In this document: positions 6,904 through 64,000 of the stretch, in pieces
Position numbering within the stretch: the stretch's first letter is position 1
How the letters are laid out: the number at the start of each line of letters is the position of its first letter
Assembly: GCA_977018835.1 (NCBI GenBank)
Contig: OZ361258.1
Location: 1,116,001 to 1,180,000 of the forward strand
Reading direction: 5' to 3'
Length of the DNA stretch: 64,000 bases
Source: Minutocellus sp. GHC0000111
Taxonomy: Eukaryota
Program-made: the position numbers and the translations under genes
The notes under the pieces: model-generated
Told to the model about the DNA's origin: nothing
Database searches by the model: none
Seen by the model: the letters and a program-made list of their open reading frames with translations, nothing else

Positions 6904-9900
6904 ATGAGTGGTATCGTCCGCTTCTTCGACTCGTCGCTGCCCCTGTGGGAGGCTGCCGATGGCGCTGCTCCCACTGCTGCTGGTGGAACTGTCGGCGGTG
7001 CTAGCGGAGATCAGACAGCGGCGGCGGCGGCGGCGCCAGCACAAGAGCATGGACAGCAAGTTGAGAATGATGATGGTGATGGCCCATCCTCTCGTGCCGG
7101 TTCTGGACCGGCAAACATTTCCGGTGCTGGCGATACTGCAAATGCAAATGCAAATGCAAACGATCCTTCTTCCACCAGTGCAAATTCAGAGAATGCCGGT
7201 GCGTCGAAGGATGATAATGGCGCCGCCGATGGTCAATCGGCTCCGTCGTCGAAACCAGGACCGACAATGAGCGTGGAGCAGTACGGCCAATCTCTCATAC
7301 CAACAGCCAGCGCCGATGCTGAGAATTCTGGAACGGTGGATACCGCCGCTGCAGATACCGGCGCTGTGACTGGCGACAATGTCACGATGGAAGTTGAACA
7401 GCCTGCAGCTCCTGCCGCTACTTCTAATGCACCATCCCTCACGTACGAGGAGTGGTCGGCCCTCCGCCGCAAAGCCTTTGAAAGGTACATGAACCGTCGC
7501 ATGGTCAGCCCTTCCTCGTCGTCTTCCTCGCAGTCATCGTCGTCGTCGACAAGTGATGGAAACAACAGAACGAAAAAGTCCAAGGGTGCAAAGGGTGACG
7601 GATCGCCGTCCCAAGATACGGCCGAGTCCTCTCTTTTGCTGTCGGCCTCATCTGGGTCGCCCGCCAGCAGTACCGGCTTGCTAAGTAGCATCGACGGCAG
7701 TCCAATGAAGCAGCAGTCTTTGGATAGTCCTGACGGCCGCAAGAAGGCGGATGCCGAGGCGGAGGGCAAGGGCGGTGGTGATGATGATGATGAAAGTCAC
7801 AATTCCATCGACGGGTCTCCCCTTCCAGAGTATGCTGCCGCCGAAGCCGATGGCGACGAGGATGGCGATGAAGTCATGGACGAGTCCATGTTCGACGATG
7901 CCGACATTCCCGAGACGGACATCTTCCAGGTCTTTGAGGACGATGCCGACTACCATCATGGCCGGGACCGTCCTCTGGAAACGCAGCCCGAGACGCAAGA
8001 GCAGATGCTGCCGGAAACGCAGGAGGATCCGCCCCTCCCGGTGCAGCAGTCGCAGAGCCAGTCACCCGAATCTATGTCGCAGTCTCAATCGCAATCGCAA
8101 TCTGAGTCGCAATCACAGATGATGGATACGCAGCCGCTGTTGGAGAGTCAGCCGGAAACTCAGCAGGAGGTAGGCGTCATGATGCTGGGTCAGGACAGTC
8201 AGCAAGATGACGACGACGACGAGGAGGAGGAGGAGGAAGACGTGGACGACCTGCCCGATACTCAAGATGCGACCCAGAAAAGTCCTAACGTGGTTCCCAT
8301 GGACGTGGAGGTTGCCGCCAACGTTGTTCCAGAATCAAGTACCAAGAAGAGAAAGAAGAGCGACAAGAAGAAGTCCGGTAAAAAGAAGAAGGAGGGGGAG
8401 GATGCCAATCGACGGAGGAGGAAGGATCGGCGCAAGATTCTGCACGAATCGCAGACGAGAGGTACGGCCAACACGGTGGAGCAGATCAACCTTCGCGTCC
8501 ACACGGTCAACCTTGGTCCGTGCCGTGTGGTGACCGCCTGGCCACTTCGCAAAACTAAGCGTCTGCATTGGCAGGCCGATACCGATTCTGCTCCTACCGC
8601 TTCAGCCAACGGCCATGAGGAGAATGGTACTGCCGCGCCAGCCAAGGGCATGGGTGGACTTCGGATACTGACCAGTCCCTATAAGGACTTTGAGGATGAT
8701 GGTCCGCTGGGCAACATCTACCGCTCGGTCCTCACTCTCGAGGTGGAGGAGGTCGTCGACGAGGAAAGGGAGGAGGCCCTACGAGAGCAGAGAAGACTCT
8801 TCCAACGACCATTTGAGTTGACCGACGATGTAGATGAGGAGGAGGCTTTTGACAAAACCAAGTATTCCGCTTACAAGACAGCGGTGCTCACCGCCAAGAC
8901 CAAGCGTCGCACCCGAGTATTTCTTTATGGCAAGTACGCCACCAAAGTGTCTCGTCTCCTGTCGGAATGGAAGTATCGCCTTACACCCAACAGCAAGACC
9001 TGTGCACTGGCCGGTGAGGGCAGAGAGGAAGTTTTGCTCTCGCTCAACAATGTCCCAGCCCGCTGTGTCCTTCCGTACTATGGTCGAACCTCCTCGGAAG
9101 CCCCCATACTTGACAACGAGCTTGGCCGATGCTCTAGGTATTGCCTCTGCATTGGCTCGAACTCCCACATGATGGTAACGAGTGAGGATGCTGAAGACGG
9201 AGAGAAGGAACGCTTCGATACGGTCAACTCGGTAGGCAGTGCCGCCGATCTGGAGATGAGAATCGTCATGGTCCGAAAAGAAGCGATGGCAGCTGTTGTC
9301 GGATCGCCTTCTCAGGTTGAGATACAAGTGCAGCATAGTGCGCCAAGTTCCACCTTCAAGAGCACTGCAGAGTCTATTCTGAGCCTATCAGCCATTGAAA
9401 GAAAGGAATCGGAGGGTACCGGACCGAACGCCTCTGATCTTGCTGCTCGTTACAGCGAGATCATTGTGAAAAAGGAGAAGAGGATGCAACAATTGATCGA
9501 TGAAGCCAGAGGCGAAGGTAGCAATAAGGATCAAGATGAGAATGTGGATGCAGCCCAGGGACAAGGAGCGGGTGGAAACGAGACTGGCGATCAGGCTGAA
9601 GCTCCCGTTGCGAACCCTGAGGAAGGGACTGCTGGCGAAGAGGGCGAGCAAGCGAGAAAGCGAAGACGCACATCGGTCCGTTATCACACGTTGGTAGGTC
9701 AATATTTGCTTTCTTCTTTCTATCTTTATCTTTTCCACTGATGACTTGCTCACCTTTTCGATGCACCTTTTCGATGCATTCATTCGATGCCATATTCATC
9801 AACACAGGCCGAGCTGCAACCATTCCTTGACGCCCTCAAGTCAAGAAAACAAGACATGCAGTCTGGAAGGCGTGCCTTCCATCGTTTTGATGACTCGACG

Positions 9901-11802
9901 AACGTTTATGCCATTGCTTTGAGTTCTTCTGCACCCTATCGGACGAAAAGAGGTGACTGGATGGTCAGTGTCCTCCTCATCGATGAGTCTCTTCCTCCCA
10001 CCAAACTTGTCAATGACTCCAACGAGAACAATTCGAATGCTGACAACACCCCGGCAAACCCATCGGCACATATCTACGTCCCATCGATCTCAATTAATAT
10101 ATTTCATCCAGACAAGTCCAAGCTGCCCGTAATCCGGTATGCTGGCGACGTCATCAGAGCGCATAGAGTCGCTGTGCAGGAATACAATGGCGATATCCAG
10201 CTCGTCGGCCGTCGCAACAGCTCATTTTACGTCGTCAGACCTCGTAATGAAAAGCTTATGATGGAAAATCCGCAGGGTCAGGGCTGGGTTGAATCCTACA
10301 CGGCGAGCAAACCGTCCATGCTTGACGTCGATGACTATCTACGAATGAGAGAACTTTGGCGCTGGGGCCGCAAGCGCTTCGGTGAGCACCCGATACTCCA
10401 TGGCAAAGAACGCATTTCGATAGCCGACGTTGGGCCGGTAGACGACTTGGAACGAGCAATGGCTGGTGTTCCGATAGAACGGACGGTAACAAATGGCGAT
10501 CTCATCGCCATGGTAACTGCAATCATTCCACAGCCACCCGAACAAGTCAGCGATCGAACTCCAAGGGCATTTCTTCGCTTGTGGGACGGAGCTGGCCGTC
10601 CCGAGTCTGATCCAATCCTCGTCGACAGTCTTGCCGCGAGACAAGCGATCCAAGAGGGAGATCCACCTTCCTCGGTCCTCACAGCAATTAGCGAAATTGT
10701 ACCTACTCTAACAAAAGGTGTCGGCGGTGACGGCGAAAGCGAAGGCTTTGAGCCTCCCAAGTGTCTTTGCGGACGAGTAGTCAACGTGGCTATCTGGGAG
10801 GCAGAACAGTGGGAGCGGATTCGAAGCAATGAAAGTGGCATTCGAGTTGGAAAGTTTGTCCGGCTGAAGAACGTCAATGATGGTCGTCTTGGTGCAGAGA
10901 ATCCCAAGCGATGTAAGTTTTATTGGATTTGTCGCTCCAGCTTGCGCGTTCGCCATATATTTTGTCGTCATTTCTCACAAACATTTTCTCTCTCTTTCTC
11001 TCTCCCCTTCTCTCTTCGACAAAATATTGCAGGCCTTATGGCTCACCAGAGGACGTCCATTGTTCCTGTGCCGGACCAATCGTTCGAGGTCAGGTCTCTT
11101 TTGCGGACACACAATGCTCGTATTATCAGGAAAGACCCACCCAATCCGAGCAGTGGTATCCTTCCTCTATCAGTACCGGCAGTCGAGGAGGCCGAAGCTT
11201 CTCGAGATGCCGAGGCCGCCGATGCGCAAGATCCTGCTGCCGAAACGAATAGACAGGGACCAAGCCCTGCAGTTGTCGCCGAGCCCCATGTTGCCCAACC
11301 TTCGTACCAGGCCGCCGCAACCGACACTGAGGAATTGTTTACGCTGGCCGAAGTGATTGGCGGCCCAGACGAGACCGAACCAGCAACCTTCAAGTCGCGT
11401 TTTACGGTCTACGGTACCATCCCTGAGGTCGATGTTGAGTCGGGTGACGGATTCAAAGATCTGTACGTACCGGCAGATCCGGACGACGAGACATCGGAAG
11501 AATTGGCTTATGAATTCAGTCTGAGTATCCGAGATGATTCGGCCGAAATCAATGTCATTGTACTGAACGACGTCGCCGAGACGTTCTTCATGTCCGTCAC
11601 TGCGTCGGACGTATGCAAGAAGGGTGGAACCCGGGGCGGTCGTCGGCGTCCCAAAGAATTCAATCGAGGCTTGAAAGACCTCAAAGCTGTTCTCGCTAAA
11701 GACGCGGTGTGGGAAGGGGACATTTGCACAGCCATTCTCGAAGATGAAAAGTTTTTTGTGTTGAAGTCGCTGACGCGAGTCAACGACGAAACGGGGGCAT
11801 AG
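6904..11802 (+). CDS. POT1: POT1-like telomeric ssDNA-binding OB-fold protein with a long acidic N-terminal extension
   Basis: OB1-like segment NVYAIALSSSAPYRTKRGDWMVSVLLIDES...SINIF....LPVIRYAGDVIRAHRV..QEYNGDIQLVG; second OB with LRLWDG...VGKFVRLKNV; C-terminal OB (FSLSIRDDSAEINVIV). Introns 9694-9807 and 10913-11032 (GT-AG) join the ORFs in frame. Confidence 0.75.
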
Positions 11803-11875: not shown

Positions 11876-13830
11876 CTACATTCCCTTCATCATCATCTTC
11901 AAGTCTTTCTCGGCAGTGCCGGTTGGCATTAGATTGAACTCTTTTGATAGAAGATCAATGACACCGGGGGTCAGGTATGCCGGGATCGTTGGGCCTAATC
12001 TAATGTTTTTCACACCCATTGATAGAAGAGTGAGAAGAACCGCCGCTGCCTTCTGCTCCAAATGACTCACGGCGAGCGATAGGGGCAAATCGTTGACGCC
12101 ACAACCCAACGCCTTGGCTAACTCCGTTGCGACAACAACGGCAGAGTAACTGTCGTTGCACTGGCCCATGTCAAGAACTCGAGGGAGGCCGTTGGCGATG
12201 GTCGCACCCTGTAGCTTGGGGCTCTTGATGAAACGATTCTTTGCGCAGCCCAAGGTGAGAATGACAGAATCGGAAGGAGTTTCCTCGGCAAGGTCGGTAA
12301 AGTAATTCCGATCCCATTCGGTGCCATCACAACCTCCGATCAAGAAGATTCGGGAGAGGTCTCCCGTCTTGGCAGCCTCAATGATCTTCTCAGCCAAGGG
12401 TAACACCGCTCGGTGGTTGAAACCGACAGTGTTGAAACTGGCCGGCTCCACAGTCTTTGGGAAACCCTTCATATCCTGAGCCATCTGAATCACCTCGGAA
12501 AAATCACGGTCCTCACAGATGTGCTTGACGCCATCTACACCCACCTCATTCATCGAGAAGATCCGACTCTTGTAGGCTCTTCTGGGCTCAAGGATACAAT
12601 TGGTCGTCACGATGATTGGGCCGGGAAAGGTCGCAAACTCAAACTTTTGTGCCTGCCAGGCGGTGCCATAATTTCCTACAAGATGCTTGAATTTCTTCAA
12701 TTCAGGATAGGAGTGAGCTGGAAGCATTTCTCCATGAGTGTAAACATTGACGCCGGTGCCTTCGGTTTGGACCAAGAGCTCGTGCAGGTCCTTGATATCA
12801 TGGCCAGACACTAATATGGCCTTGCCTTCCACAGCAGTCGTTCGTACATCGGTCGGCTCAGCGTTACCAAACGACTCAGCGTGCGCGGTATCAAGCTGGG
12901 CCAAAGTGGTGGCATTGATTTCACCTACCTGAAGGCAGGTGGCCAACAGTCCATCGAAATCTGGCTCATTCGACGCAAGCTTGGTCCAAACCTCGTGCAA
13001 TGGCTTCATGATATTTTCCTCATCCATAAAGCCCATCGCATGTGCGTGGGCTGCATACGCGGAGACGCCCTTGGCACCGGCCGTGGCCAATTCATTGAGA
13101 GCATAGGCATCGTCGTGGCCCATCTTTTCCTTTCGGGCCAGCACGCCGACGGATTTGCCGAATGCCTCGAGCTCGTCGAGGGGAATATCTGGCGACAGGG
13201 GCAAGTCAGCAAGATCAGCAGACGGCGCGGTGCCACCCTTGGCAGCCACAAGAGACTCGAGTTCTGATTTTACTTTGAGACCATCCTGGATGATGTAGGC
13301 AATTCGTACCTGAAAACGAGTAACATGAATAAGTGAAGCATGAAATGTTTGTGAGGATGGATTTAATTCTCGTATCATGTTCCAGGCCAGAGTAATCTGG
13401 CCAATTGAATACCCTTCAACATATATAAATTCCTCACCTCGCTAAAGTTGACATTGGTCAAGGTTGCAAATGCCGCTTTCAGCGTCCACGCGTTGGCCTC
13501 GGCCATATCTTGTGCTGTAGCACCGGCATCTCTGGCCGCGACGCACCACGAGCTGACGCTCTTGATGAAGTGGACGAGGGCATCCTGGGCGTTGCTGGCC
13601 TCGGGACTTTTGCCGCACACGCCAATGGTGGAGCAACCGACTCCCTCGCGGGCCTGTTCGCATTGACGGCAAAACATGGCTGGATCTTGGGGGATGGCGG
13701 CGGCCTCGGAGAGGATTGGACTGGTCGACGAGGCGAGGGCACGGACGGCCTGGGCGCGGAAGGAGGAGGCCATGGCCGGGCGAGCGACTGCCCTAGCGGC
13801 GGATCGGGTGGCGAGGCGGCCGATCATCAT
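11876..13830 (-). CDS. hcp: Hybrid cluster protein (hydroxylamine reductase / prismane) with a mitochondrial-type presequence
   Basis: N-terminal CRQCEQ...GC...GVCGK cluster motif; SGHD, YTHGEMLPAHSYP, TTNC, GGCDG, LGCAK, DMGQCNDSYSA, EQKA motifs. Intron 13310-13437. Arg/Ala/Ser-rich N-terminus MIGRLATRSAARAVAR. Confidence 0.95.
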
Positions 13831-14123
13831 AGTTTTTGGATGAATTTTTTTTGCAGATCTGCTGGAAAAGACCGAAACTTCGAATAGGGATCCTTCATTC
13901 AAATACTCCCAAAATAAACATTGGGTTAATTTAGGGAAATAATATGTACGAGAGTGCATTGGTCTGCTCATCGTTCGGCTTCCATCCATAAATCGTCGCG
14001 TCGGAGCGAAGGAGAGAGGCAAGCTGGGGTTGGCACCATCTCGCCCAGAGAGAGTAAGATACAGCCTTCTTGTCTTTTAGAAAAAGCATATATTCGCCTC
14101 TGGTCGGCCAATTGAGCTGTGAG

Positions 14124-15695: not shown

Positions 15696-18600
15696 TTAAC
15701 GGCGACATCTACCTCGTCCTCGGCCACCTCCACGACCCCCGCGACCTCTGCCTCGACCACCTCTGCCACTAGCCTTGAGGCGTTCACTTCCATGATACAC
15801 TCGAACTTTCTCTTGAATCAATGAATCAGTGCAGAAGTTACAAACATGCTTGGTCGAGCCATCTGGCAGCGGCGACGATCCCTCTTTCCATTCGATTTTC
15901 ATTAAATGGCATCCAGTCACCTCGTCAACACGATCCAATACAGTGACCTTCTCAACCTCCTTCGGAAAGTATATGATTGTAGGATCCCGAGTCGACACGA
16001 GCCGGTACTTATTTGGAGTAGGGTCGAGGACGAGAGCGCCACCAGAATCAGGATCCGGCGCGACGGTCCTCTCCTTGATGAGAGGGTGGTCGTCGGGATG
16101 GGGACATTCGAGGACGAGGGATCTCCCGCCAGCAGCTCGGCGTACCTGTCGCTCCTTGTGCTCGTCGTCTTCATCAAGTCCTTTGCCGCCAGTGCCCTCA
16201 TCGTGGCCGGGAAGGGACCAATCTTTCGAGTTGAAGCAATTCGGGCAAAGTGGGAAAGTCCGAGCTGGAGCACCACACTACGAAACGAAAATAAATAGAG
16301 CAATGAATATGACGATGAGAACCTATTTCGAAGAAAAGGTAGAGGGGACTCGTCCACCATAAAAAAACTTACCTGATACAAGCAAAGCTCAAAGCTACAG
16401 AGGGGACATTTCTGACATGTGGCTTGCTTGATTAGACCACCCGATGGCAATGGAAAGACTTCTTCGGTCCATTTGTTGTAGAGCCGAGGAGGAGGCCCGA
16501 CGATGTAGCTCAAATACCGACGAGTCTTTACACAGCGAGTAAATGGCTGACCAACATCTTGGAGCTTGGCGAAGCTGCTCCCGAATAACACGTCCATTTT
16601 GTTGACGTTTTCGACAAAGTTGGCAAACTTGGTGGCAAAGATATCGATCGCCTTCTTAAGAACCGCATCTTTGTCGGCCAGGCCCTTTGCAATCCTGTCG
16701 CACTCTTTTTCAATATCGGCCCTGACCTGAGGAAGAACCAGAGATGCGTCGATCAGATGATAACCATTTGCGAGGACAAGACCAAGCTTGGTAGGCACGA
16801 GCTTCCGGCCACTCGCCAGCTCGACATAATTTCGTTTGAGGATATTCTCTATATGCGAGGCAATACTAGCGTCTGTGGGAGGACGAGCAAAATTGTCGTT
16901 GTGATTGGAGAGGGGAATGATGTGAGGCATTCGATTATAAAATCCGCAAGCGTAATGTAATGTTCGAGACAATAGTGTCCCTCACTTACCTGTGCCAATT
17001 CCGTTCGCTTCCATCTTTCCGATGAGTTCACTTTCTGTGAGATACGAAGGGGGCGTCGTAAGCTTCTCTTTCACTTCGAGAGAAGCATATGATGCAGCGG
17101 AAGGAGCAACATTGACACCACCGGCCGACGAGGATTTTGAGGCAGCTGAAAACAGCGGAATAAGTTCTCCGACGCTGAACTCCGGAAAAGCCTTTTCCTC
17201 TTCATCTTCCAGGTCATCACCCTCCTCCTTATCACCGTACTGTTTGTGTTTTACAATTGCCAACCAACCGGCTTCCTTCAATTCCTTGCCAGCAAGGGTG
17301 AAGCTACCCTGTCCTTTTCCCTGCTCTTCGAGGATGTCAATTTTGAGCTCAACTCGTGTGGATGTCCAAACGGCATCGTGCGACACACTGGCAATAAAAT
17401 GCCGAGTACAGAGTTCGTACAGACGAGCCATATCGCCACTAAGTTCTCCAGAGTTGGCGCGGCAGGGCGTGATGGGCGGATGATCCCCCATGTCGACACC
17501 ACCTCGTGCCTTGTTGATTCCAGTGGCAAGTAAATCTCGGACGTAGCCCCCCCAGAAGTTATCTCTTGACTGCTCATGAAGGCATCCCTTGACATCGAAA
17601 GAGGTTGGGTAAGCAGTTGATTCTGTTCTGGGATAGGAAAGGTATCCGCTCTGAGAAATGAAAGTAGAACGAAGGAGAAGGAAAAAGAGGTGAGGAATCG
17701 GTAGGCATTCTTCTACATGCACGGAAGAGTGTCTGTAAGCGTTTACTTACCAGGTACAACCTCTCCGCACACTGCATCGCCGCGTGTGGGCCCATGCCGA
17801 GCGCCTTGGACGCGGCTTTGAGCATTTGGACAGTATTCAGAGGAGTTGGACGTCCTTGTTTCTTTTCCTTTGTGACAACGCTGAGGACTTCGGCCGAAGC
17901 ACCAGGCGTATCCTTACATAGCTGAACTAGAGCATTCGTCTTATTTTGGTTGAAGCTCCTGCCACTCGCCCACTGGGCTCGGCACATCCGGCCGCGCTTG
18001 AGAACGCCCAAGTCAAGCACCCAGTAGGGCGTTGGCTTGAACGTCTCAATTTCGATGTGACGCTGAACGCAGAAGCCGAGCGTAGGAGTTTGACAAGGTC
18101 CGTAACTCAATACCGCGCTGTCCAAATCTCCATATCGACCTTGAAAGTATCTGGTTTGGAAACGAGAGAAAGCCACGCCGACCTTGAGGTCAAGCTCCTG
18201 ACGAGCGTCCACACTCAACGATTGGCACTTGTCGGGCTTTCCCAATAAGCCATAAGCTTTCGAGATGTCAGACGGATTGATTGCCGAAAAGTATGCACGG
18301 TAGACACGGTCATAGTTGGCGACACCGCTGTCACCACCACTCTTCATCAGATGCATAATGCAGTCCAAAACTTCGAACGCAATGTTCTCACCCTCCCGAT
18401 CGCAATCCAACCACAGAACGACGAAATCGCACCCACGCGCTTCGGTCTGCAGATGCTTTACTACGGAGCCCTTTTGCGTCTTCTTGACGATTGGGGCATG
18501 GAACAATTCCGCTGGATCAACGGAGTCCCATGACTGGTACTCCGAGCCGAAATCGGTACCAAAGACATGGCCCGCCACCGACGTGACCTTGTGCGAGCAT

Positions 18601-19538
18601 CGTTCGGCATTCGGCGCCTTGGGGAAGTGCAGGTGCGGTATGTCATGCGTCGGAAGTGACCGGCCGCCGCCGCCAAAGTTGCACTGCGACGATCCCTGGA
18701 TGCTGGAAAGGCCCTTGGCAATGGCCTGGGCAATCGACGGCTTCTCGGCAATGTGAATGACGGATATCTTATTGCCCTTTCCGTACGAAAGAGGATTCGT
18801 CGTTTGCGGCTGTGACGGTGGTATGGCCGGCTGGAGCGGCGCATTCGTCGGTTTCGACGATGTTGCCGATTTTCCACCCTTCTTCTTCGATTGCTTGTCG
18901 TCCTTTTTCTTATTACCCGATTGGTTCCCGGCGTCCTTCTTCTTATCCTTCTTCGTACTGTCCTGTTGGTTTTGTTTCTCCTTCTTATTATCAGAGCCTT
19001 TATTGCCGCCCTTCTTCTTTTTGCTCTTCTGGTCGCCGGCTTTATCACCATTGTTGGTAGATTCCCCCGACACTTCCTTTGCCTCGTCAGCGGCACCCTT
19101 GCTGCCTCCCTTATTCTTGCTCTTGTTGCCTCTCCTGCTGTTCTTCATGCCACCCTTGTTACCACCATTCGTACCGTCTTGCTGATGAGCTGGAGCAGAT
19201 GCCGATGCTCCAGGCGGGACAAACTCACTGGCACCAGCACTGAGTTCGCTGCCGCCACCGGGATGGCCCGATGGATTCAACCGGTGCATCCCAATCGACT
19301 CCAGGTCGGCACTCGACAATGCGGCGGCGGCGGCACTGTCGTCGGCCCCTCGTTGCTCGCCCGCAGAGGATGACGATGCATTGCTCTGCTTCTTGTTGGA
19401 ATTGCCGCCGCCTCTGCCGCCGCCGCCACGGCCTCGGCCTCGACCCCTGCCACCGCGGCCACCTCGGCCTCTGCTGCCACCTCGGCCCCGTCCTCCGCCC
19501 GATCGGCCGCCCGACTGTTCGTTGTTGCTGCCGCTCAT
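15696..19538 (-). CDS. TOP3B: DNA topoisomerase III beta (type IA)
   Basis: TOPRIM AEKPSIA...TSVAGH...LWLDCDREGENI; ARQELDLKVG; SYGPCQTPTL; catalytic GYLSYPRTES; DHPPITP; GIGTDASI; C-terminal Zn-ribbon Cys pairs and an RGG tail. Introns 17651-17750, 16873-16989, 16278-16372. Confidence 0.95.
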
Positions 19539-36184: not shown

Positions 36185-38203
36185 CTAGGGGGAGTAACCA
36201 GTGTCGTCGCGTTCATCCAACAAGTTGTCGACGATGGCTCGTATATCCTTGTTCTTTTGGATTATTTCATCCAGCGAATAAGATTCGGAATCCGACCTCG
36301 TACGGCGAGAACGAGAACGAGAGCGAGAGGCAAAGCGGGGGGTGCGAGAGCGGTCGCCACCGGGGACGGGGCTGGTACTGGCGGGTCTACCTCCGCCACC
36401 AGCGCCAGACGAGGCGTAGTCATCCTGAATTAATGTGTGGGAGTTTGATGAGAGGATATCGATGTGGGAGGAAAGGGTGAGATCGAGGCAAACGGTAGTT
36501 GGACAAAGTAGTTAGTTGAGAGAGAGCCGCAGCAGTAAAGAGAAAGCACCTACCATAGTTCCGCCGCCGCTGGCTGTACCTCTGCCGCCAGCACTGGTAC
36601 TGGGGCCACGGGCATCGTCAGGAGATGGGGAAGGGGAAGGCTTCCTGTCCGAGAACGAGGAAGTAGATGAGGACGAGGACGAGGACGGACTGGAGTCATC
36701 GCCACCATCGACATTGTATCCGGCAGCACGCAATGCTTGGCCCCAATTGGCCCCGGCGGTTTCCAGCCACTTAATGCCTTCGTCCATCTCGTCTTTGTCG
36801 GCTTGAGACAGCCCCTTGCGTCGGATAGGCTGGACAAAGAGATTGGAGTCAGAGAGATCGTCACCGGCAGTACCTCTGCCGCCAGCAGTGGTACTGGAAC
36901 CACGGGCAGTGCCAGGGGAAGGCTTCTTGTCCGAGAACGAGGAATCAGACGAGGAAGAGGACGGGCGAAAACCATCGGCGGCAGTACCGGTGGTGGGGGT
37001 GGTAGGAGGCTTGCGTTTGGCGGCAGCTTCGGCAGCAGCGTCGGCGGCGGCGACCTTGCTAGCAGCATCAAGGGCTTCGCGACCACCCGGCGAGGTCGCT
37101 GCGAACTGCATCAGGGTGGCAATTTCTCGGCCATGATCATCGAGCCGGGATCCATGCTGCAACGCACCCTCCTGGAGGCTACCGATCTGGACATTTTGCG
37201 TACGCCGATCCTCCTCGAGGTTGCGGACTTTGCCACCGAGCGTCTTGTGTCGGACCTGAAGGGTATAGATATCACCGCCTTGCTTCTTCAATCGCCTATC
37301 CGTCTTACCCTGATGGACCTGGATGTCAGAAATCTGCCCCCCTTGCTTCTTCACTACTCCCTCCAGCCCCTCCACCCGTCCCATCACGGCGTTGAAGGCC
37401 TGCTGCGACTGCTTCCGGTCCTTCTCGTAATCGGCATCACGCTTGGCTAGAGCAGCATCGAAATTGGCGTCACGCTTGGCCTGGCCTTCACCAAATCTTT
37501 CCATCATGACATTGACCGCACCAAAGGCAGTGTTGACTTGGTCGTGGGTGACCAAACCAGCGACAGGTTGTCCTGGAAGCATACCACCGGCGAAAGGAGC
37601 AGCAGCAGCGTTTGCAGCGGGACTGGGCGGGACTGAGTGAACGACCTGACCGGCGGCGAAGCCTGGCTGCTGCCCGGGGACAGGCCCTTGGCCGGGGACG
37701 AGGCCTTGGCCAGGACCGCCAACAGCAGCAACGGCATCGTCGAAGCCATTGAGAGCACCGACCGCCTCACCACCTTGAGCAGGGATATCAAGGAGAGGAA
37801 GGAGACTCGGAGGCAGGTCTGAGACATTTTGGAGGCCGAGACGAATGGCAGCGTTGAGGGCTTTCTTGGCCTTCTCCCAGCTCTTGGGATTATTCCTCTG
37901 CCTTGCGTAGGCCACTATTGCTGCCCTGTTGCGAGACAGATGAGGATACTGGCCCGGGGGGAAATCCGACAGCGTGAGTCCAGACGGATTAGGGGTGAGA
38001 GAAGCTGCGAGAACTGCCATGCACCATTGACGGCCTTCGGGGGTACCGAAAGTCAAGTAGTTGGTGCGTGGGCTAGGACTTGGTGCCGATGGCGCGACTG
38101 TATCCGTCGAAGTGGCGATAGCGAGGGCATTAGAAGCCGTCCCAGCCTTGGCAGCGGAGCGGGTCATGCGCCTGGTGGTATTGCTATTGTTGGGGGTCTT
38201 CAT
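36185..38203 (-). CDS. Hypothetical protein with a long heptad coiled coil and a Ser/Gly-rich duplicated tail
   Basis: 563-aa ORF. A GT-AG intron at 36425-36553 would add a last exon ending TAG at 36185. Heptad pattern VEGLE..V..Q...I..I.. Confidence 0.6.
36577..36965. repeat. Internal ~100-bp diverged duplication inside the CDS
   Basis: TACCTCTGCCGCCAGCA(C/G)TGGTACTGG..CCACGGGCA at 36577 and 36871; GGGGAAGGCTTC(C/T)TGTCCGAGAACGAGGA at about 36633 and 36915. Confidence 0.8.
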
Positions 38204-38520
38204 TGTCGTTTGTTGTTGTTTGGCTCGTGAGAGTGATTTGTGTGAGCTTCGTTTGGGGATGAAAAATCGGGCACGTCTGAACCGCCGCCGGCGGCGAGCG
38301 TCGAGACGATCACGCGGTCGACCACGACGACGATCATGGACTCCGGAGGCATTGCCAATTGATCCTAAAGTACCAGACTCTTGGGATTTTGTAATAAGTG
38401 CTGTATCAATCGATCGGAAGCTTGCGATGAGTGATGTTCCGTCGGCGAACTCTTATGCACTCAGACTATCACGAGATCACGCCAACGCACGCCATTGCAC
38501 GTGAATGCACGCTCATTGTC

Positions 38521-38791
38521 AATTGCCAAAGTCTATCCATACTCGGCCGATTCCAACAAATGAGGTACCATTCGAAAGCTCTCGACGAGTACTGTTCCAT
38601 CGGCTCATTGGCAGGTATCATCGTGCCCATTCTGGCTCAAAATGATCTCATGTCACAGCAATGTCCATGTTGAGATCACTACAGTGCACGCCGATGCACG
38701 ATAGTGCACGATTATACCAAATTGCCGAACTACGTCCATACTCAAACAATTCCAGCAAATGTGGTACCGCTGGAAAGCTCTCATCAAGTAC
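38521..38791. repeat. Two diverged 72-bp direct repeats, 199 bp apart
   Basis: AATTGCC...TCCATACTC...ATTCCA.CAAATG.GGTACC..T.GAAAGCTCTC..C.AGTAC at 38521-38592 and 38720-38791. Confidence 0.75.
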
Positions 38792-44451: not shown

Positions 44452-44900
44452 AGAAACTTCGACATTTTCTCATGAGAGGATTATTTTGCACGAGAGATCG
44501 CTCCACCCATTGGCGTCCGAGAGGAGAACCGCGGGACTGCCGAGCTTTATCTCCTCCCTTCCAATAGCCTTTGATATCGGCGACGACGGCAAGAACCTGG
44601 GCCTACGTAGCTAGAGTCTAGCTCTTGGTCGCTACAGGTCTGGGCGGAAGTTTGTTCAGAGGAATCTTCGATAAGTGCAGACAAATCGCCATAATGCCGA
44701 TCTTCGCGCCACAATTTTTTGCTCATGATACGCTTCAGGGCGATTGTTAGATCTTGCAATGACTACTCATCGCATTCGCTTCTCTTCCTTTGACGATTCT
44801 AGGTTTACAGAGCGGAAGCCCAAAGCAGCCTCCTGAGAACTGCTGCAAAGCTAGACAATAGCTACGAGTCCAGTCATAAGGTTAGCTAATGGGATATATA

Positions 44901-45650
44901 TGTTAGTCCCAAAATGCGCACTGTCCCAGTTCGCGAACTGGGATCCCAGTTTGCGAACTGAGATTCATTTTTCCCAGTTTGCGCACTGGGCCCCAGTTCC
45001 CAAACTAGGATCTCAGTTTGCGCACTGATACTACCAGAATGGAAACTGAGATAAACACGCCAATCCGAATTTGGGAACCAGACGAGTTCGCGAACTGGAA
45101 CAAAAATGAATACCAGTTTGGAAACTGGCATTCTCGGCAAGTGTCAGAATGGTAACTGCCGGTGTTGGCTCATGCACAATGATTATGTACTGGTAGATCT
45201 ATCTACAATACAAGTTGCACTGTGCATCATATCTTGAATTTGCAAGCTACATGTACTGGTACAGTAGCAACATGATGCCGGCATAGCACAGATGCATGTA
45301 CAGTTCATGACTTATATTTGCCAGAAGCAGCTAGCTAGATATTATTATTTATTCACTATATGTATTTAGTATCAGCTAATGCCAATTTATTGAGTATCAG
45401 CTCCGGCACTAATGTCGTCTGGACGTCTGGACCAGGTTTGGGCTGTGTTGCTTCACTATGAAAAAATGAAGCGAGGAGAAGCAAAGGCGATATCATCCAT
45501 GCTAAATTTTCATTATTTCTCGATTGATCCCAGTTTGCAAACTGAGATTGTGCCTATGATCCCAGTTTCCAAACTGGGATAAATAAATCCTAGTTCGCAA
45601 ACTGGGATCCCAGTTCGCGAACTGGGACAGTGCGCATTTTGGGACTAACA
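44901..45650. mobile_element. MITE (750 bp) with 59-bp perfect TIRs, inserted in a (TA)n tract
   Basis: TGTTAGTCCCAAAATGCGCACTGTCCCAGTTCGCGAACTGGGATCCCAGTTTGCGAACT at 44901 and its reverse complement ending at 45650; many subterminal CAGTT....AACTG palindromes; TATATA on the left, long (TA)n on the right. Confidence 0.9.
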
Positions 45651-45657
45651 TATATAT

Positions 45658-45691
<34 letters not shown>

Positions 45692-45703
45692 ATATATATA
45701 TAT
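45651..45703. repeat. (TA)n microsatellite
   Basis: Nearly perfect TA run immediately right of the MITE. Confidence 0.95.
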
Positions 45704-59149: not shown

Positions 59150-60040
59150 ATGAAATCATCCAAGTCCATCGCCACCACTACCTCCATCGCCGTCGCCTTC
59201 TGCGTCATCGCTTCGACCGCAAGTGGCAGCATATATGATGAGCCGTCCTGCAAGCTGGGCCTCAAGCGTTTGAACTCGGGCATGCCCAACAATGATCGAT
59301 CATCTAGTCGTCGACGAAGCCATTTGCGACGGTCCCTGGAAACTCGGCATCAACGAACACCAACAATTCGGTCTCTGGAGAGACGAGATCGGTTTGTACG
59401 ATCTCTTTGCTACCGGTGCTCACAAGGTTCAAGTCGCCGAGTCCGAAGACGGCACTGAATCTTATCTGACCGTTTACGGCATGACCGACGACGACATTGT
59501 GTGGGAAGTTGGCTGCGTTGATCAGTCACCCAATGCGACTGCCAAGCTCATTGTCATGAATGCCACGCACGTGGTTCGCTTCGCCGAAGAAGAGCGCCTC
59601 TGGAGCTACATGGAGGATGGGTCCAACAATCTGGATTCCAGATGAATTGTGATCAACAATAGTAACACTCCTTCGCCAGACGATGCTCCTACGATGAGCC
59701 CCGTAGCCATGCCAACCAAGGAACCGACTGGCTCAGATGAAGCTCCAACGGCCAGCCCCGTATCTACACCGACCGAGGACCTCGTCGATGAATCCTCAAG
59801 GGAAGACGACACCGATTTCTACGACTGTGAGCAAAACAATCCTTGCGGGGTGCAGAAGCACATCGATAACAACCAGTTCTATTTTCCGTCGAGCAATCCC
59901 GCAAAGTACATTCAATGTGGCATGAGTGCCGAAATGTGCTTTGTGAGAGACTGCGGACCGGGCACGCACTGGGATCAAGAGAATCAAATCTGCTGTTGGG
60001 CCGGCATGAACCTCTATTTTTCGTTGCTCTGCTCGGCTGG
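59150..60040 (+). pseudogene. Secreted protein with a C-terminal CBM14 (peritrophin-A) chitin-binding domain, disrupted
   Basis: Signal peptide; 4-bp GATC duplication at about 59294-59301; in-frame TGA at 59643-59645; PT-repeat linker; YFP.....KYIQC......FVRDCGPGTHWDQENQICCW. Confidence 0.75.
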
Positions 60041-60271
60041 TGTTGATAGCATGTGTGAGTACAGTACAACAAGTAGGATTGCTAAAGAGGTCCTAAAGCT
60101 AAGCTAGATAGATATAGCTAGTAGAGGTTAATAGGACCTACGTAGATGAAAAATGGGCCATCGGAGATGTCGTTGGCCCATGGATCAACGGTCAGGAGAG
60201 GGCACTGACGGTCTGATCACCGTACGTACCGTACGTATGTATACGTACGTACGTATCCCACGGCATCAACA
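60041..60271 (-). repeat. 3' LTR of the copia element (231 bp)
   Basis: Termini TGTTGAT...ATCAACA (7-bp inverted repeat). Preceded on the minus strand by a PPT-like CTGCGAGGGTG downstream of RNase H. Confidence 0.75.
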
Positions 60272-63200
60272 CACCCTCGCAGATCAATGACTAGTGCCAT
60301 TGAATCTACATGTAGAGTCCTAATTGGAATCTACATGTAATTAGACTGGTCGCATGTCGACATGGTAGCGGGCGGGATGGTGCTTTGTAAAATAATCGGC
60401 CAAATTTTGCGCTCCTTTCCGCCAGCACACCTGGAATTGTCGTTGCTCTATGCGATCTTGGACCCAGTAGAATCTCATGTCCATAGCCTTAGACCGTCTT
60501 TGCTTGACGGTTTTATTGGTGATTCCAGATGCTGTAGAGTTGTCAACGACGATAGCAGTAGGGGGCTGCGGGTGACCCATTTCTTCTAGTGCTGCCCGGA
60601 TTGGCACTGCATCTTTCATCACGTTGAAAAACAATCCTCCCAATTCGGCTTCAGCGGCTGAGGACATCACATGCTTGATGACAATGGCTCCATTCATTGG
60701 TGGCATGGGATCACTTGAGTCAGGCTGGCGGTGCGGGTCCTTAGGTCGGGAGCTTAGGTAGAAGCACCCTCCGAGCTTGCTTCTTGATTTCGGGGCTGAT
60801 AAGTAGGAGGCGTCGCTATGCACATGTGGGATCATGTCTGACTTGACGCATCGAATGACTGCGTCGGGATGGGTTGCAAGGTAATCTAGAAGCTTCTTGG
60901 CATCTTGTCGAGTGCGCTCGGTAGCTTTGGATTGTTCCGCTGAGATGCCATTGAGCGCCGGTAAAATTGTTGAATCAATTGCTCGACCATAGCACAAGGA
61001 GCTGCCCACCACCTGTTGAATTTCGTTGATGCCTTTGGCGTCGAGTGGTGGTGAGTCGTCTTCCGGTTCTGGCAGCTGGGGTCCCGGGCCATGCGTCGGA
61101 CGATTCCATTGACATGGCGCATGCTCGGGCCGTGAGGGGCGGTCGTGTTGGAACTTGTGGCGCATCTCCTTGACGTAGTTAGGCATAGATAGATCCACCC
61201 ATTTGGCCTGTAGTTCCACTAGAAATGAACACCACAATAAAGTCGGCCTTCCCAATCGGTAGTGATCTTGTGCTTGGAGTTGAGGGCCTGAATGAGATGG
61301 TCTGCATGCTCTTTCCCGACATGCTTTACTCCAAAATCGTCAACGGTTAGGCAAAAGGCAATTGGGCGGGTTTTGTGCCTCCAAAGGCCGGCAGCACGCT
61401 TGCAAGGGAAACAGCCATGGGGTTTGAGATGCTTGACAAGTTGATCGCAGGCTAGGCGCCCTGCCTGGGGTAATCCATGCATTCCGCCATCGATTCTGAC
61501 CAATACTCGACCATTCTTTACTTTGTCGTGGAGGTCGTAGGCTTCCATGACTTCGTCGGGGATGAGAGCTACTGGCGCCCACATCCATTCTGGCTCTGGC
61601 ATGGTGCTGTTGAGACAGAAGTCACTGATATCAACTCCCATGAAACGAGCGTTGTCTGTAGAGATGACGCTGTTGAAAAGTAACTTTGCAGTCAACATTT
61701 CAGCGGTCGGGGTCGAGACTGTGCCAGGGTAATGAATTTTGTCGCCTCCTGCAGTCCATCGAACTCGATTGGGATTTGGTTTATGGGAGCGATAGTCGGC
61801 GACAATGCGGAGGTATGTGGCTTTTCCCCCCCGAGGCAGTTCGGACCAGTGGACGAAAGGCATTGTATTGGAGGGAATGCTAGCACTGTTTCCAACTCGG
61901 CCGTCCGTTAGCCGTCCAATTTCATCGATGTTTGCTTGAATGAATTGGTCCCTCATGTTCGTTTTGAGGAGGTCGCGGTATTCAAGCATTGCACCAGCAT
62001 CGGGATGGACGACGGCGTTAGCAAAGTGTTGGAGGTTTGGTAAAGGCGAGAAAGCTGCCATGTTGGCCACGTGGTGGGTGCTACGACGAGATGATGGCCG
62101 TGGGGGAGGGTTCCGATGTGGAATGTACCCTCGCTGACGGTATGATCGTCGTCGAGGTGGTTTGGCGGTCGATGGTTTGGACTTGCTTGTCGATTTTGCT
62201 GGAGCTGGTAATGTTGGAGTGGTATCGATCGTTGGAGACTTGCGTTTACGTTGCCGACGGGAGGTGGGGGCATTGGAACTTTGATTGGATGTTACGACGG
62301 TTGCATCGTCGTCATGATTATCATCATCGTCGCCGTTGGGCTCGTCTACTGCAGCCAAAGGATTGTAGTAGTTGGAAGAAACTGACGAGCGAGGTGGCGC
62401 GTTGGATCGACGTGATCGACGGCTTTTAGTGGTGGCTGCATCACATGTGGAGGATTTTGCCACCCTCGGAGGTTGCTGGGGCTGAGGCAACGGAGCGTTG
62501 GGGTTGGAGACAAGGTGACGGCCTACTTCAGTCTCGTTCATCTCTTCTACGTCGTCGTCCTCGTATTTGATTTTGTAGTACTTATGCTTCTTGTCAAATG
62601 CAACGACTCTACCCTTGTAATTGCGATCTCCAAACACTTTGGCGACGATGGTACCGAGGCGGAATCGTTGGGAGTCGTCATCGTTCTCCAGCACCCTCGG
62701 AGCTGCGGTTGTCTGCATCGTCTCATCAGAGGCGGAGGTGGCAGATTCTGCTGGGGTCGCGCTGTTGAAAATCTCGGAGAGCTTTTCTAAAGCTTGACGA
62801 TGCTCGTCTCGAAGGGGAGCAAGGGGTGCCGCTGGATGTGGATTCTGTAGAGCGTGCAGGAGTTCATGAGCTGCGACTATTGCTGCATCGGCCGACGACG
62901 TTTTGGGTACCGGAATCATTTGGGGAGCCAGACGAGTGTGTTACCAGTGCGTTCCGCCCGAGTTTCCTCAATCCAAACCTTGTAACACCGGTAGTGTTCC
63001 ATGGCTGGACCGACATAGTACCCATCAACGCCATGCGGGGACCAAGAGCCGCGTGCCGAGGGCATCTCGTGAAAGATGACCTTGCATCCGAGGGGGCCGA
63101 GAGGCGTGCGATTGAAATCAAAGCCGCCATTGAGTTGCTCGTACGCTGATAGTCGAGGGTTGACTCGGGATGCTCTCAGGAAATTGAGGGTCATTACCGC

Positions 63201-64000
63201 CTGCTCCAGCAATTTATCCCACAAGATGAGGGGAAAGTCGGGATCGGTACCACAGAGAATCGCAATGAAATGATTCTTAAAGGTTCGAATGGCTCGTTCG
63301 GCCGCATTTCGGCGGTGGGAGTGCGTTGGGGTCAATTGAAAATCTACATCCTTTTCTTCCATGAACTCCTTCAGCTCTCGACTCACTTCATTATCCAATC
63401 GTTGCAATTTTGGGCGAAATCCTCGCTTGGAGAGGTATTCGAAAATAGTTTGGTGCGCTCGGCGCATTTCCGTTCCCGATCGGCTTTTCATTGGTTCGGC
63501 CAAGATGCTGTTGGAGTCATAGTCATAGACGACCATTATGTACTGGTGGCCAGAAATAGACGATGCCAAGAAACGGCCGGGCTGATCTGAGAAGATCTGG
63601 CCCGTTATGTCATGACAATCAGCAAAGACATAGTTGGTGCGCTGTTGGTGTTGTGCCGGGTGGAGATCCTGCTCGGTTTCGTCCACCCCAGGGAGAGATT
63701 TTGGCGTAGCCATCGACCGTTTGGGCTTGGTCGACCTGATGTTCTTGCGCTGCTGGTCTAAGTGACCTTTAATCATCGGTATCGACTGTGGCATGTGCTT
63801 ACGTACAAGCTTTGATGTGAGGCCTGGCCAAGATCTATAAAATCCCGCATCGATTGCTTTGCACCAGGTAGATAGCTGAGGACTGCCAGCGCACCAATGT
63901 AAAAAGGCTACACGTTCCGGAACCGTCTCCTGGGCAATTGCGGCGTTGGCAGCATGTTGGATGACGTTGGGGCCGGGGAGCGGCGACATGATGGGCGAGC
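60041..64000 (-). mobile_element. Ty1/copia LTR retrotransposon (diatom CoDi-like), 3' part, degenerate
   Basis: Domain order integrase (SDQPGRF, RLDNE, HRRNAAERAIRTFKNHF) - RT (RVRWTAGGDKI, G.PQAG, VDDFG) - RNase H (SDASYL, SSAAEAELGGLF, KAMDMRFYW, NLADYFTKHH). Frameshifts near 62918 and 61215. The element extends past the window end. Confidence 0.95.

Follow-up and report, generated by a model that had tools for sequence, protein, structure and literature searches.

The window analysed here is a stretch of 64,000 nucleotides from the diatom Minutocellus sp. GHC0000111 (assembly GCA_977018835.1, contig OZ361258.1, positions 1,116,001 to 1,180,000), and it ends within a copia-type retrotransposon with long terminal repeats (LTR). 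The pol region of this element runs on the minus strand from 60341 past the end of the window at 64000, in three frames, and is 81-90% identical to an intact relative of 1,399 amino acids, P0313. Both have the Ty1/copia order of domains (integrase, then reverse transcriptase, then RNase H) and a copia-type reverse transcriptase. PF07727 is found on many of the homologues, but P0313 itself scores 24.5 bits, under the cut-off of 31.6. The part that we take to be the integrase from its motifs also has a weak SH3_retrovirus match (E=0.0026). Frame breaks occur near 61225, in the reverse transcriptase core, and near 62940, at a homopolymer run in the integrase part. The C-terminal part ends early at a stop codon (60341-60343) and has lost a short in-frame segment near 60680. 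A single LTR, the 3' one, lies within the window; its ends were defined by the inverted termini and by position. The coding region carries many transitions that turn TpA into TpG or CpA on both strands and replace tyrosines with cysteine or histidine (Table 1), a signature that is real in the assembled sequence and very probably in the DNA.

Table 1. Features of the retrotransposon and control features in the window (positions of the whole stretch).
Feature	Position	Strand	Remarks
3' LTR	60041..60271	-	231 bp, TG...CA, 7-bp inverted ends, TA-rich; short four-base tandem array at the U3 end
Purine-rich tract directly before the LTR, putative plus-strand primer site	60272..60280	-	From position and composition; function inferred
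C-terminal reverse transcriptase and RNase H part of pol	60341..61222	-	Translation, 85.5% identity to P0313 residues 1090-1399
Reverse transcriptase core	61225..62050	-	561 homologues (E<=1e-10), of which many carry PF07727
Tudor domain PF21743 in pol, between integrase and reverse transcriptase	62521..62655	-	E=2.6e-12, 46.8 bits; also present in intact P0313
Integrase part of pol, running off the end of the window	62916..63998	-	90% identity to P0313 residues 160-525
RTAY-free stretch	60253..61503	.	1,250 bp, longest in the window
Inferred non-synonymous TpA transitions of the window copy (22 from the spectrum plus the QVCW site)	60426..63956	-	23 in all (13 sense, 10 antisense)
Tyr sites, part 1	DFCLN 61617, GMHG 61479, LACDQ 61449, GCFP 61413, VKHVG 61323, SKHKI 61272, APCQW 61114	-	
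Tyr sites, part 2	PTHG 61093, LCYG 60994, IRCVK 60850, GGCFY 60766, QVCW 60427, RAHQT 63455	-	
Control: MITE-like element, ~760 bp	44894-45700	.	Long inverted ends; 15 RTAY in 751 bp (44900-45650), not depleted
Control: exons of host topoisomerase III beta (TOP3B)	15917..18800	-	20/21 conserved Tyr kept, 0/21 Cys/His, 11 in RTAY context

The original prediction had listed 13 sites at which Cys or His had replaced Tyr by a single transition at TpA. P0313 has Tyr at all of them, and the codon of the window copy is TGY or CAY at each. Three further departures (MIPH 60829, HPDAG 61998, KRAAG 61395) correspond to Leu, Thr and Thr in the close relatives and in most sister copies, and all 16 cited sites are one TpA transition away from the residue of close intact relatives. 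The intact relatives, found in a second search (P0313, P0327 and P0314, with 88%, 83% and 75% identity), have Tyr at all the Tyr sites; Tyr is ancestral and the proposed direction of change holds. The idea that the ancestral Tyr belongs to the copia consensus applies to most sites. At 61449, 61114 and 60766, Tyr is found in close relatives and not in most distant copia proteins, which makes these residues family-ancestral rather than universal motifs. The window copy differs from the close intact relatives, where its sisters agree with them, at 27 positions, and 20 of these are TpA transitions, a class that accounts for just 2,070 of the ~88,300 non-synonymous opportunities.

We used sister copies to obtain a substitution spectrum resolved by dinucleotide. 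Three protein clusters are 94-96% identical to the reverse transcriptase of the window and contain 6, 113, and 3 members, encoded on contigs that measure 0.6-5.2 Mb. The members probably derive from copies in the assembly of the window itself or in one very close to it, and where fragments share a contig, some may be pieces of one element. The spectrum covers the 1,136 codon columns with at least 5 copies, among the window copy and 24 sister proteins. Ancestral codons were reconstructed by parsimony, with no rule on TA, and residue differences were converted to base changes. The outgroup tie-break mis-polarises about four sites, none of them at TpA, and its bias thus runs against the finding. 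Site 61419, with His in 17 of 17 copies, was treated as a fixed change of the family.

Changes from A to G affect 323 of the 2,070 copy-site opportunities at TpA (15.6%) and 49 of the 10,812 at ApA, CpA, and GpA together (0.45%), a 34-fold difference that bears out the predicted enrichment. The latter divide into 18/3,193 at ApA (0.56%), 23/3,516 at CpA, and 8/4,103 at GpA. When each site is counted once, 108 of 171 TpA sites are altered, against 34 of 908 in the other contexts (p=3e-72). The 372 A>G events among copies, 323 of them at TpA, compare with 54 C>T and 60 transversions. Transversions at TpA are rare (5/4,191; 0.07% and 0.17%), and C>T changes reach 0.42% overall, 0.42% at CpA, and 0.58% at CpG, a value too low for CpG decay, as anticipated. 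The TpA changes occur on the sense strand (189/1,051, 18.0%) and on the antisense strand (134/1,019, 13.2%). This agrees with the proposed action on both strands; with 134 of the 323 events antisense, RNA editing of the sense strand alone does not fit. The signature also stands out in a comparison with other copia proteins. In 28 columns, Tyr is the residue of 60% or more of these proteins; there, Cys or His occupy 135 of 325 cells in this family and 116 of 4,642 cells in 262 other copia proteins.

These results leave practically no room for ordinary decay of dead copies, or for the reverse polarity in which ancestral Cys or His became Tyr by C>T changes like those of repeat-induced point mutation (RIP). 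As decay would have it, the copies are no longer intact and escape selection, but intact relatives have Tyr at all sites, and every other context shows rates of 0.05-0.65% against 15.6% at TpA; we consider both refuted. Error-prone synthesis or a modified thymine, for instance a translesion polymerase that inserts G opposite T while repairing silenced DNA, would produce real chromosomal changes and deserves more attention, although we find it unlikely. An A>G change after T is formally a T>C change before A, and the data do not separate the two. Polymerase eta makes A>G changes at WA motifs in antibody hypermutation, with a spectrum that includes AA sites and transversions. Here, ApA is altered 28 times less than TpA (0.56% versus 15.6%), transversions at TpA stay at 0.07-0.17%, and a nearly pure transition at TA matches what a TadA-derived editor does (see below).

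The target is more specific than the TpA originally proposed: the dinucleotide stands, but the site is better written RT[A]Y (R, purine; Y, pyrimidine). The base after the A matters (TAC 23.4%, TAT 22.2%, TAG 5.1%, TAA 1.7%), as does the four-base context (RTAY 30.8%, YTAY 13.6%, RTAR 4.4%, YTAR 0.6%). The base at +2 does not (11-16% throughout), so that a following CG has no effect and 5mCG is not the direct context. Comparing Cys with His within Tyr codons checks the motif without amino-acid bias. Codons that follow a purine, and so present TAY on the antisense strand too, gave 85 Cys and 91 His, and those that follow a pyrimidine, with TAR on that strand, gave 47 Cys and 8 His (site 61419, with 17 His, excluded).

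The motif leaves a footprint in the DNA of the window copy. Between 60341 and 61500, in the 1,160 bp of 3' pol, there is no RTAY, where dinucleotide shuffles predict 8.8 (none of 2,000 shuffles was as low), and the product motifs RTGY and RCAY occur 47 times. The middle and 5' parts of pol have 11 RTAY versus 10.7 expected and 8 versus 8.7. RTAY density is 2.9 per kb in the reverse transcriptase and RNase H of the window copy; 79 related metagenome loci have 11.1 +/- 4.3, and host DNA of the window has 12.3. Bulk TpA is hardly depleted, as the original prediction had cautioned (observed/expected of 0.55 in the element and 0.61 in the rest of the window). The LTR, 70 bp from pol, retains 12 RTAY in its 231 bp, and the same stretch in 64 related loci has 0-7. 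The LTR is apparently spared, with a boundary at the pol-LTR junction, as judged from this one copy. A second repeated element, which resembles a miniature inverted-repeat transposable element (MITE), also keeps its RTAY (Table 1). The host genes TOP3B and HCP behave as predicted. TOP3B keeps nearly all of its conserved Tyr; its identity to named proteins is 65-73% for diatoms and 56% for the closest one from outside the diatoms, as befits diatom DNA. The hybrid cluster protein (HCP, hydroxylamine reductase), inspected by eye in two alignments, has no Cys or His at the 9 Tyr that are shared.

Differences between copies inform on timing. Both Cys and His are found, in different copies, at 24 of 49 Tyr sites. 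The load per copy goes from 3/24 to 24/32 Tyr and is overdispersed (chi2 104, 24 degrees of freedom, p=5e-12), a pattern that copy age would produce as well as uneven activity. Adjacent edits lie on the same strand in 107 of 223 cases, against 116.5 expected from permutations, which reveals no strand coordination. Where two copies resemble each other most, it is because each carries few changes. Mixed Cys and His, uneven loads and the lack of strand coordination fit independent single hits in each inserted copy, and not one processive pass. We also looked for a gradient from 5' to 3'. The pooled Spearman correlation is -0.67, and the window copy alone gives 4/12 versus 9/11, but the difference is not significant within the 8 copies that span both parts (47/82 versus 42/59, p=0.11), and strong alteration extends to the N-terminal part, which lies upstream of the window (18/31 Tyr cells). 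We therefore claim no gradient.

The same observations bear on whether the changes were made during the retrotransposition cycle, by editing of both RNA and cDNA or by biased errors of the reverse transcriptase on both strands. The element is a retroelement, like all affected sequences that we found, and insertion of G opposite T in the two synthesis steps would yield both outcomes. Yet edits within copies lack strand coordination, the LTR passes through the same cycle and keeps its RTAY sites, and up to 24 of 32 Tyr altered (every Tyr in other families) is excessive for one cycle. Moreover, the target of the similar process reported in Bigelowiella natans (Mettrop et al., bioRxiv 10.64898/2026.01.13.699255) is non-retroviral DNA that mutates in place. 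We regard an origin in the cycle as improbable.

We then searched for the signature in other copia sequences. Among the 262 other copia proteins, 9 have at least three Cys or His at conserved Tyr columns. Two of the others, encoded on short contigs from JGI/IMG and ENA, lack Tyr altogether over 388 and 433 residues; the former, P0215 (JGI/IMG), has Cys or His at 13 of 14 conserved columns. In two outside clusters, one with a Logan member, Y/C/H variation makes up 12 of 20 and 17 of 67 variable columns, compared with 0-2 in six control clusters. Strong Tyr loss is absent from all 80 metagenome loci (no more than 2 Cys or His in any of them), which a patchy process, or the collapse of copies in short-read assemblies, would lead one to expect. 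Two of these loci, L005 and L016, have a CpG observed/expected ratio of 0.22 and a CpA/TpG excess of 1.6, a methylation-driven route to the same products. A search of viral contigs for relatives of the element returned none.

The distribution across assemblies raises the question of a long-read base-calling artefact, in which a chemical mark at RTAY would be misread as G or C and persist in unpolished repeats. The heavily changed sisters are all on megabase contigs, relatives on short contigs are mostly intact, and frames break at homopolymer runs in the window copy and its sisters, which suggests residual long-read errors in the assembly. Substitutions driven by modifications are documented for nanopore assemblies, in a study of four bacteria (PMC11610603), but the errors it describes, C>T and G>A, run the other way. 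The signature is also present in short contigs of other sources (P0215 and the two outside clusters), for which the sequencing platform is not stated; short-contig assemblies would themselves collapse copies and mask changes; and the evidence from B. natans comes from Illumina and Sanger sequencing. We consider an artefact improbable.

The process in B. natans is the closest known parallel. The preprint describes two regions of integrated virus in which TpA changes de novo to TpG or CpA at ~1,000 times the background, with lines sequenced by Illumina and partly checked by Sanger, and it proposes an ADAT2-like enzyme. It also finds that TpA-poor coding sequences of this alga are enriched in reverse-transcriptase and transposase domains (10.64898/2026.01.13.699255). 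In both cases, A:T>G:C transitions dominate, are restricted to TpA, affect both strands and fall on foreign or mobile DNA. The changes are uneven between lines there and between copies here, where copy age would have the same effect. In the first four respects our case matches that process, and it is probably the same one. The two differ in host (a rhizarian alga there, a diatom here; the word 'diatom' does not occur in the preprint text available) and in target, because the B. natans data concern single-copy virus insertions followed by mutation accumulation, whereas ours compare copies of an LTR retrotransposon family. The main text of the preprint gives no context beyond TpA (its supplementary mutation table may) and no sparing of LTRs. 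The existence of TpA hypermutation is thus already known from that work. The new elements are the copy-resolved spectrum, the RTAY motif, the apparently spared LTR, the lineage (diatoms), and the target class (LTR retrotransposons). The literature searched, with most subscription papers outside its reach, yielded no diatom report of the TpA signature; an account of diatom copia elements silenced by DNMT5 methylation, in the portion available, mentions RIP for fungi only (PMC9998398).

Other systems are more distant. Fungal RIP is also a context-specific transition hypermutation that affects both strands and wrecks transposon coding sequences, and the process described here probably works like it with the opposite chemistry. 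RIP changes CpA to TpA. Its C>T changes create TpA, whereas the process of the window removes it, and the C:G>T:A transitions, mostly at CpA, that define RIP are not what we find (0.42% at CpA). In terms of RIP's repeat trigger, a multicopy family is altered, yet two repeated elements, the LTR and the MITE (both short), keep RTAY. ADAR and APOBEC also represent host editing that inactivates retroelements. Their hyper-editing leaves clustered tracks on one strand, whereas this family is altered on both strands by uncoordinated edits. ADAR favours U before the edited A, according to the B. natans preprint. Natural ADATs edit tRNA, and DNA activity is reported for amphioxus ADAT2, as cited in that preprint. 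In rice, the TadA-derived editor ABE8e causes genome-wide A>G changes at TA on either strand (10.1101/2022.02.09.479813), with a strong exclusion of AA, CA, and GA similar to ours; ABE8e is an engineered enzyme.

Among these explanations, the best mechanism, and one we hold with moderate confidence, is a host adenine deaminase, most likely of the TadA/ADAT type, acting on the chromosomal DNA of each inserted copy and converting TpA, mostly in RTAY, to TpG or CpA on both strands. In this scheme, the family spread recently: outside TpA sites, its copies diverge by well under 1% (at the protein level). The long internal coding region would then be marked as foreign, probably in silent chromatin, and the short LTR and MITE would escape, a sparing based on one LTR and one MITE. 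Acting on the exposed strand, whichever of the two it is, the enzyme would turn the A of 5'-T-A-pyrimidine into inosine; G would then be fixed by replication, such that the edited strand reads TG and the opposite strand CA. Hits would gather singly over many divisions; the copies do differ in load, and catalytic and structural Tyr have become Cys or His. The element would thereby be killed, and old relics would end up losing every Tyr, as the two Tyr-free proteins from other samples may have done.

Several points weigh against the deaminase, or against parts of the evidence used for it. The data fit damage to the A as well as damage to its partner T. The spectrum comes from 24 of the 122 members of the three clusters, all of them predicted proteins, with the flanking DNA context of every sister borrowed from the window copy, and it detects only non-synonymous, non-stop changes, leaving synonymous changes and stops invisible. 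Depletion of RTAY is limited to the 3' third of pol, and 2 of the 79 related loci have a share of TA in RTAY as low as that of the window. The DNA alignment with locus L001, 77% identical and too distant to polarise, has 18 TA>TG/CA differences versus 9 in reverse, with controls of 16:11 and 14:10. Selection confounds the Tyr controls in host genes, and the frame breaks at homopolymer runs mentioned above also count here. No ADAT2-like candidate was found in the 14 open reading frames (ORFs) of the window that were scanned. Finally, we infer both the adenine deamination and the defence role, and the latter is assumed.

Other features of the element are worth recording. The Tudor segment of pol matched 15 of 118 long proteins checked (a set without family members), all in the three closest clusters. 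By analogy with the chromodomain of chromoviruses, it may be a chromatin-reading module; the literature search returned nothing on a Tudor insert in copia pol. Compared with P0313, RNase H is truncated in the window family by a short direct duplication (60302-60340) where pol ends on its 3' side, and two sister proteins stop at the same point. An Rfam scan of 59500-64000 gave no match. On the plus strand, a host ORF with a chitin-binding CBM14 domain (59646-60107) runs into the LTR end, which places the element in or right behind the 3' end of that gene; the nearness of an active gene could account for the sparing of the LTR.

Elsewhere in the window, the ends of the MITE-like element are built of short palindromic subrepeats and the element is inserted in a TA microsatellite; differences between its arms were uninformative. 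The HCP gene (11876-14076, minus strand) is of bacterial type, with an N-terminal extension and a match to a solved bacterial enzyme at E=1.5e-128. Another gene encodes a POT1/CDC13 telomere-binding domain (9745-11802, plus strand). An ORF of 646 amino acids within 36512-38791 has an internal repeat and no Pfam match, and a 120-bp direct repeat precedes it (38473-38791). One further ORF has a diatom pyrenoid family as its match, another sign that the window is diatom DNA.

In the literature searched, the 2026 preprint on B. natans is the one precedent for A-to-G mutation that is heritable and targeted within chromosomal DNA. With the diatom case, the process reaches LTR retrotransposons as well as stramenopiles, a group open to genetic work. 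A young family with many copies yields per-site rates, which single-copy virus insertions cannot, and RTAY is a four-base motif that any candidate enzyme must reproduce. The apparent sharp boundary at the LTR constrains how the target is recognised. More tentatively, and with somewhat less than even confidence, we propose that diatoms and chlorarachniophytes share a natural genomic adenine editor of the TadA/ADAT family, guided to silenced mobile DNA. It would deaminate A in RTAY on both strands, wreck the coding bodies of retrotransposons, spare their LTRs and strip relics of all Tyr, as an adenine counterpart of RIP across the SAR supergroup (stramenopiles, alveolates and Rhizaria) that the collapse of copies in short-read assemblies has hidden. 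Transposon ages, GC content, and protein annotations are distorted in genomes with such mutation, and a natural DNA adenine deaminase, if confirmed, would be of interest to the base-editing field.

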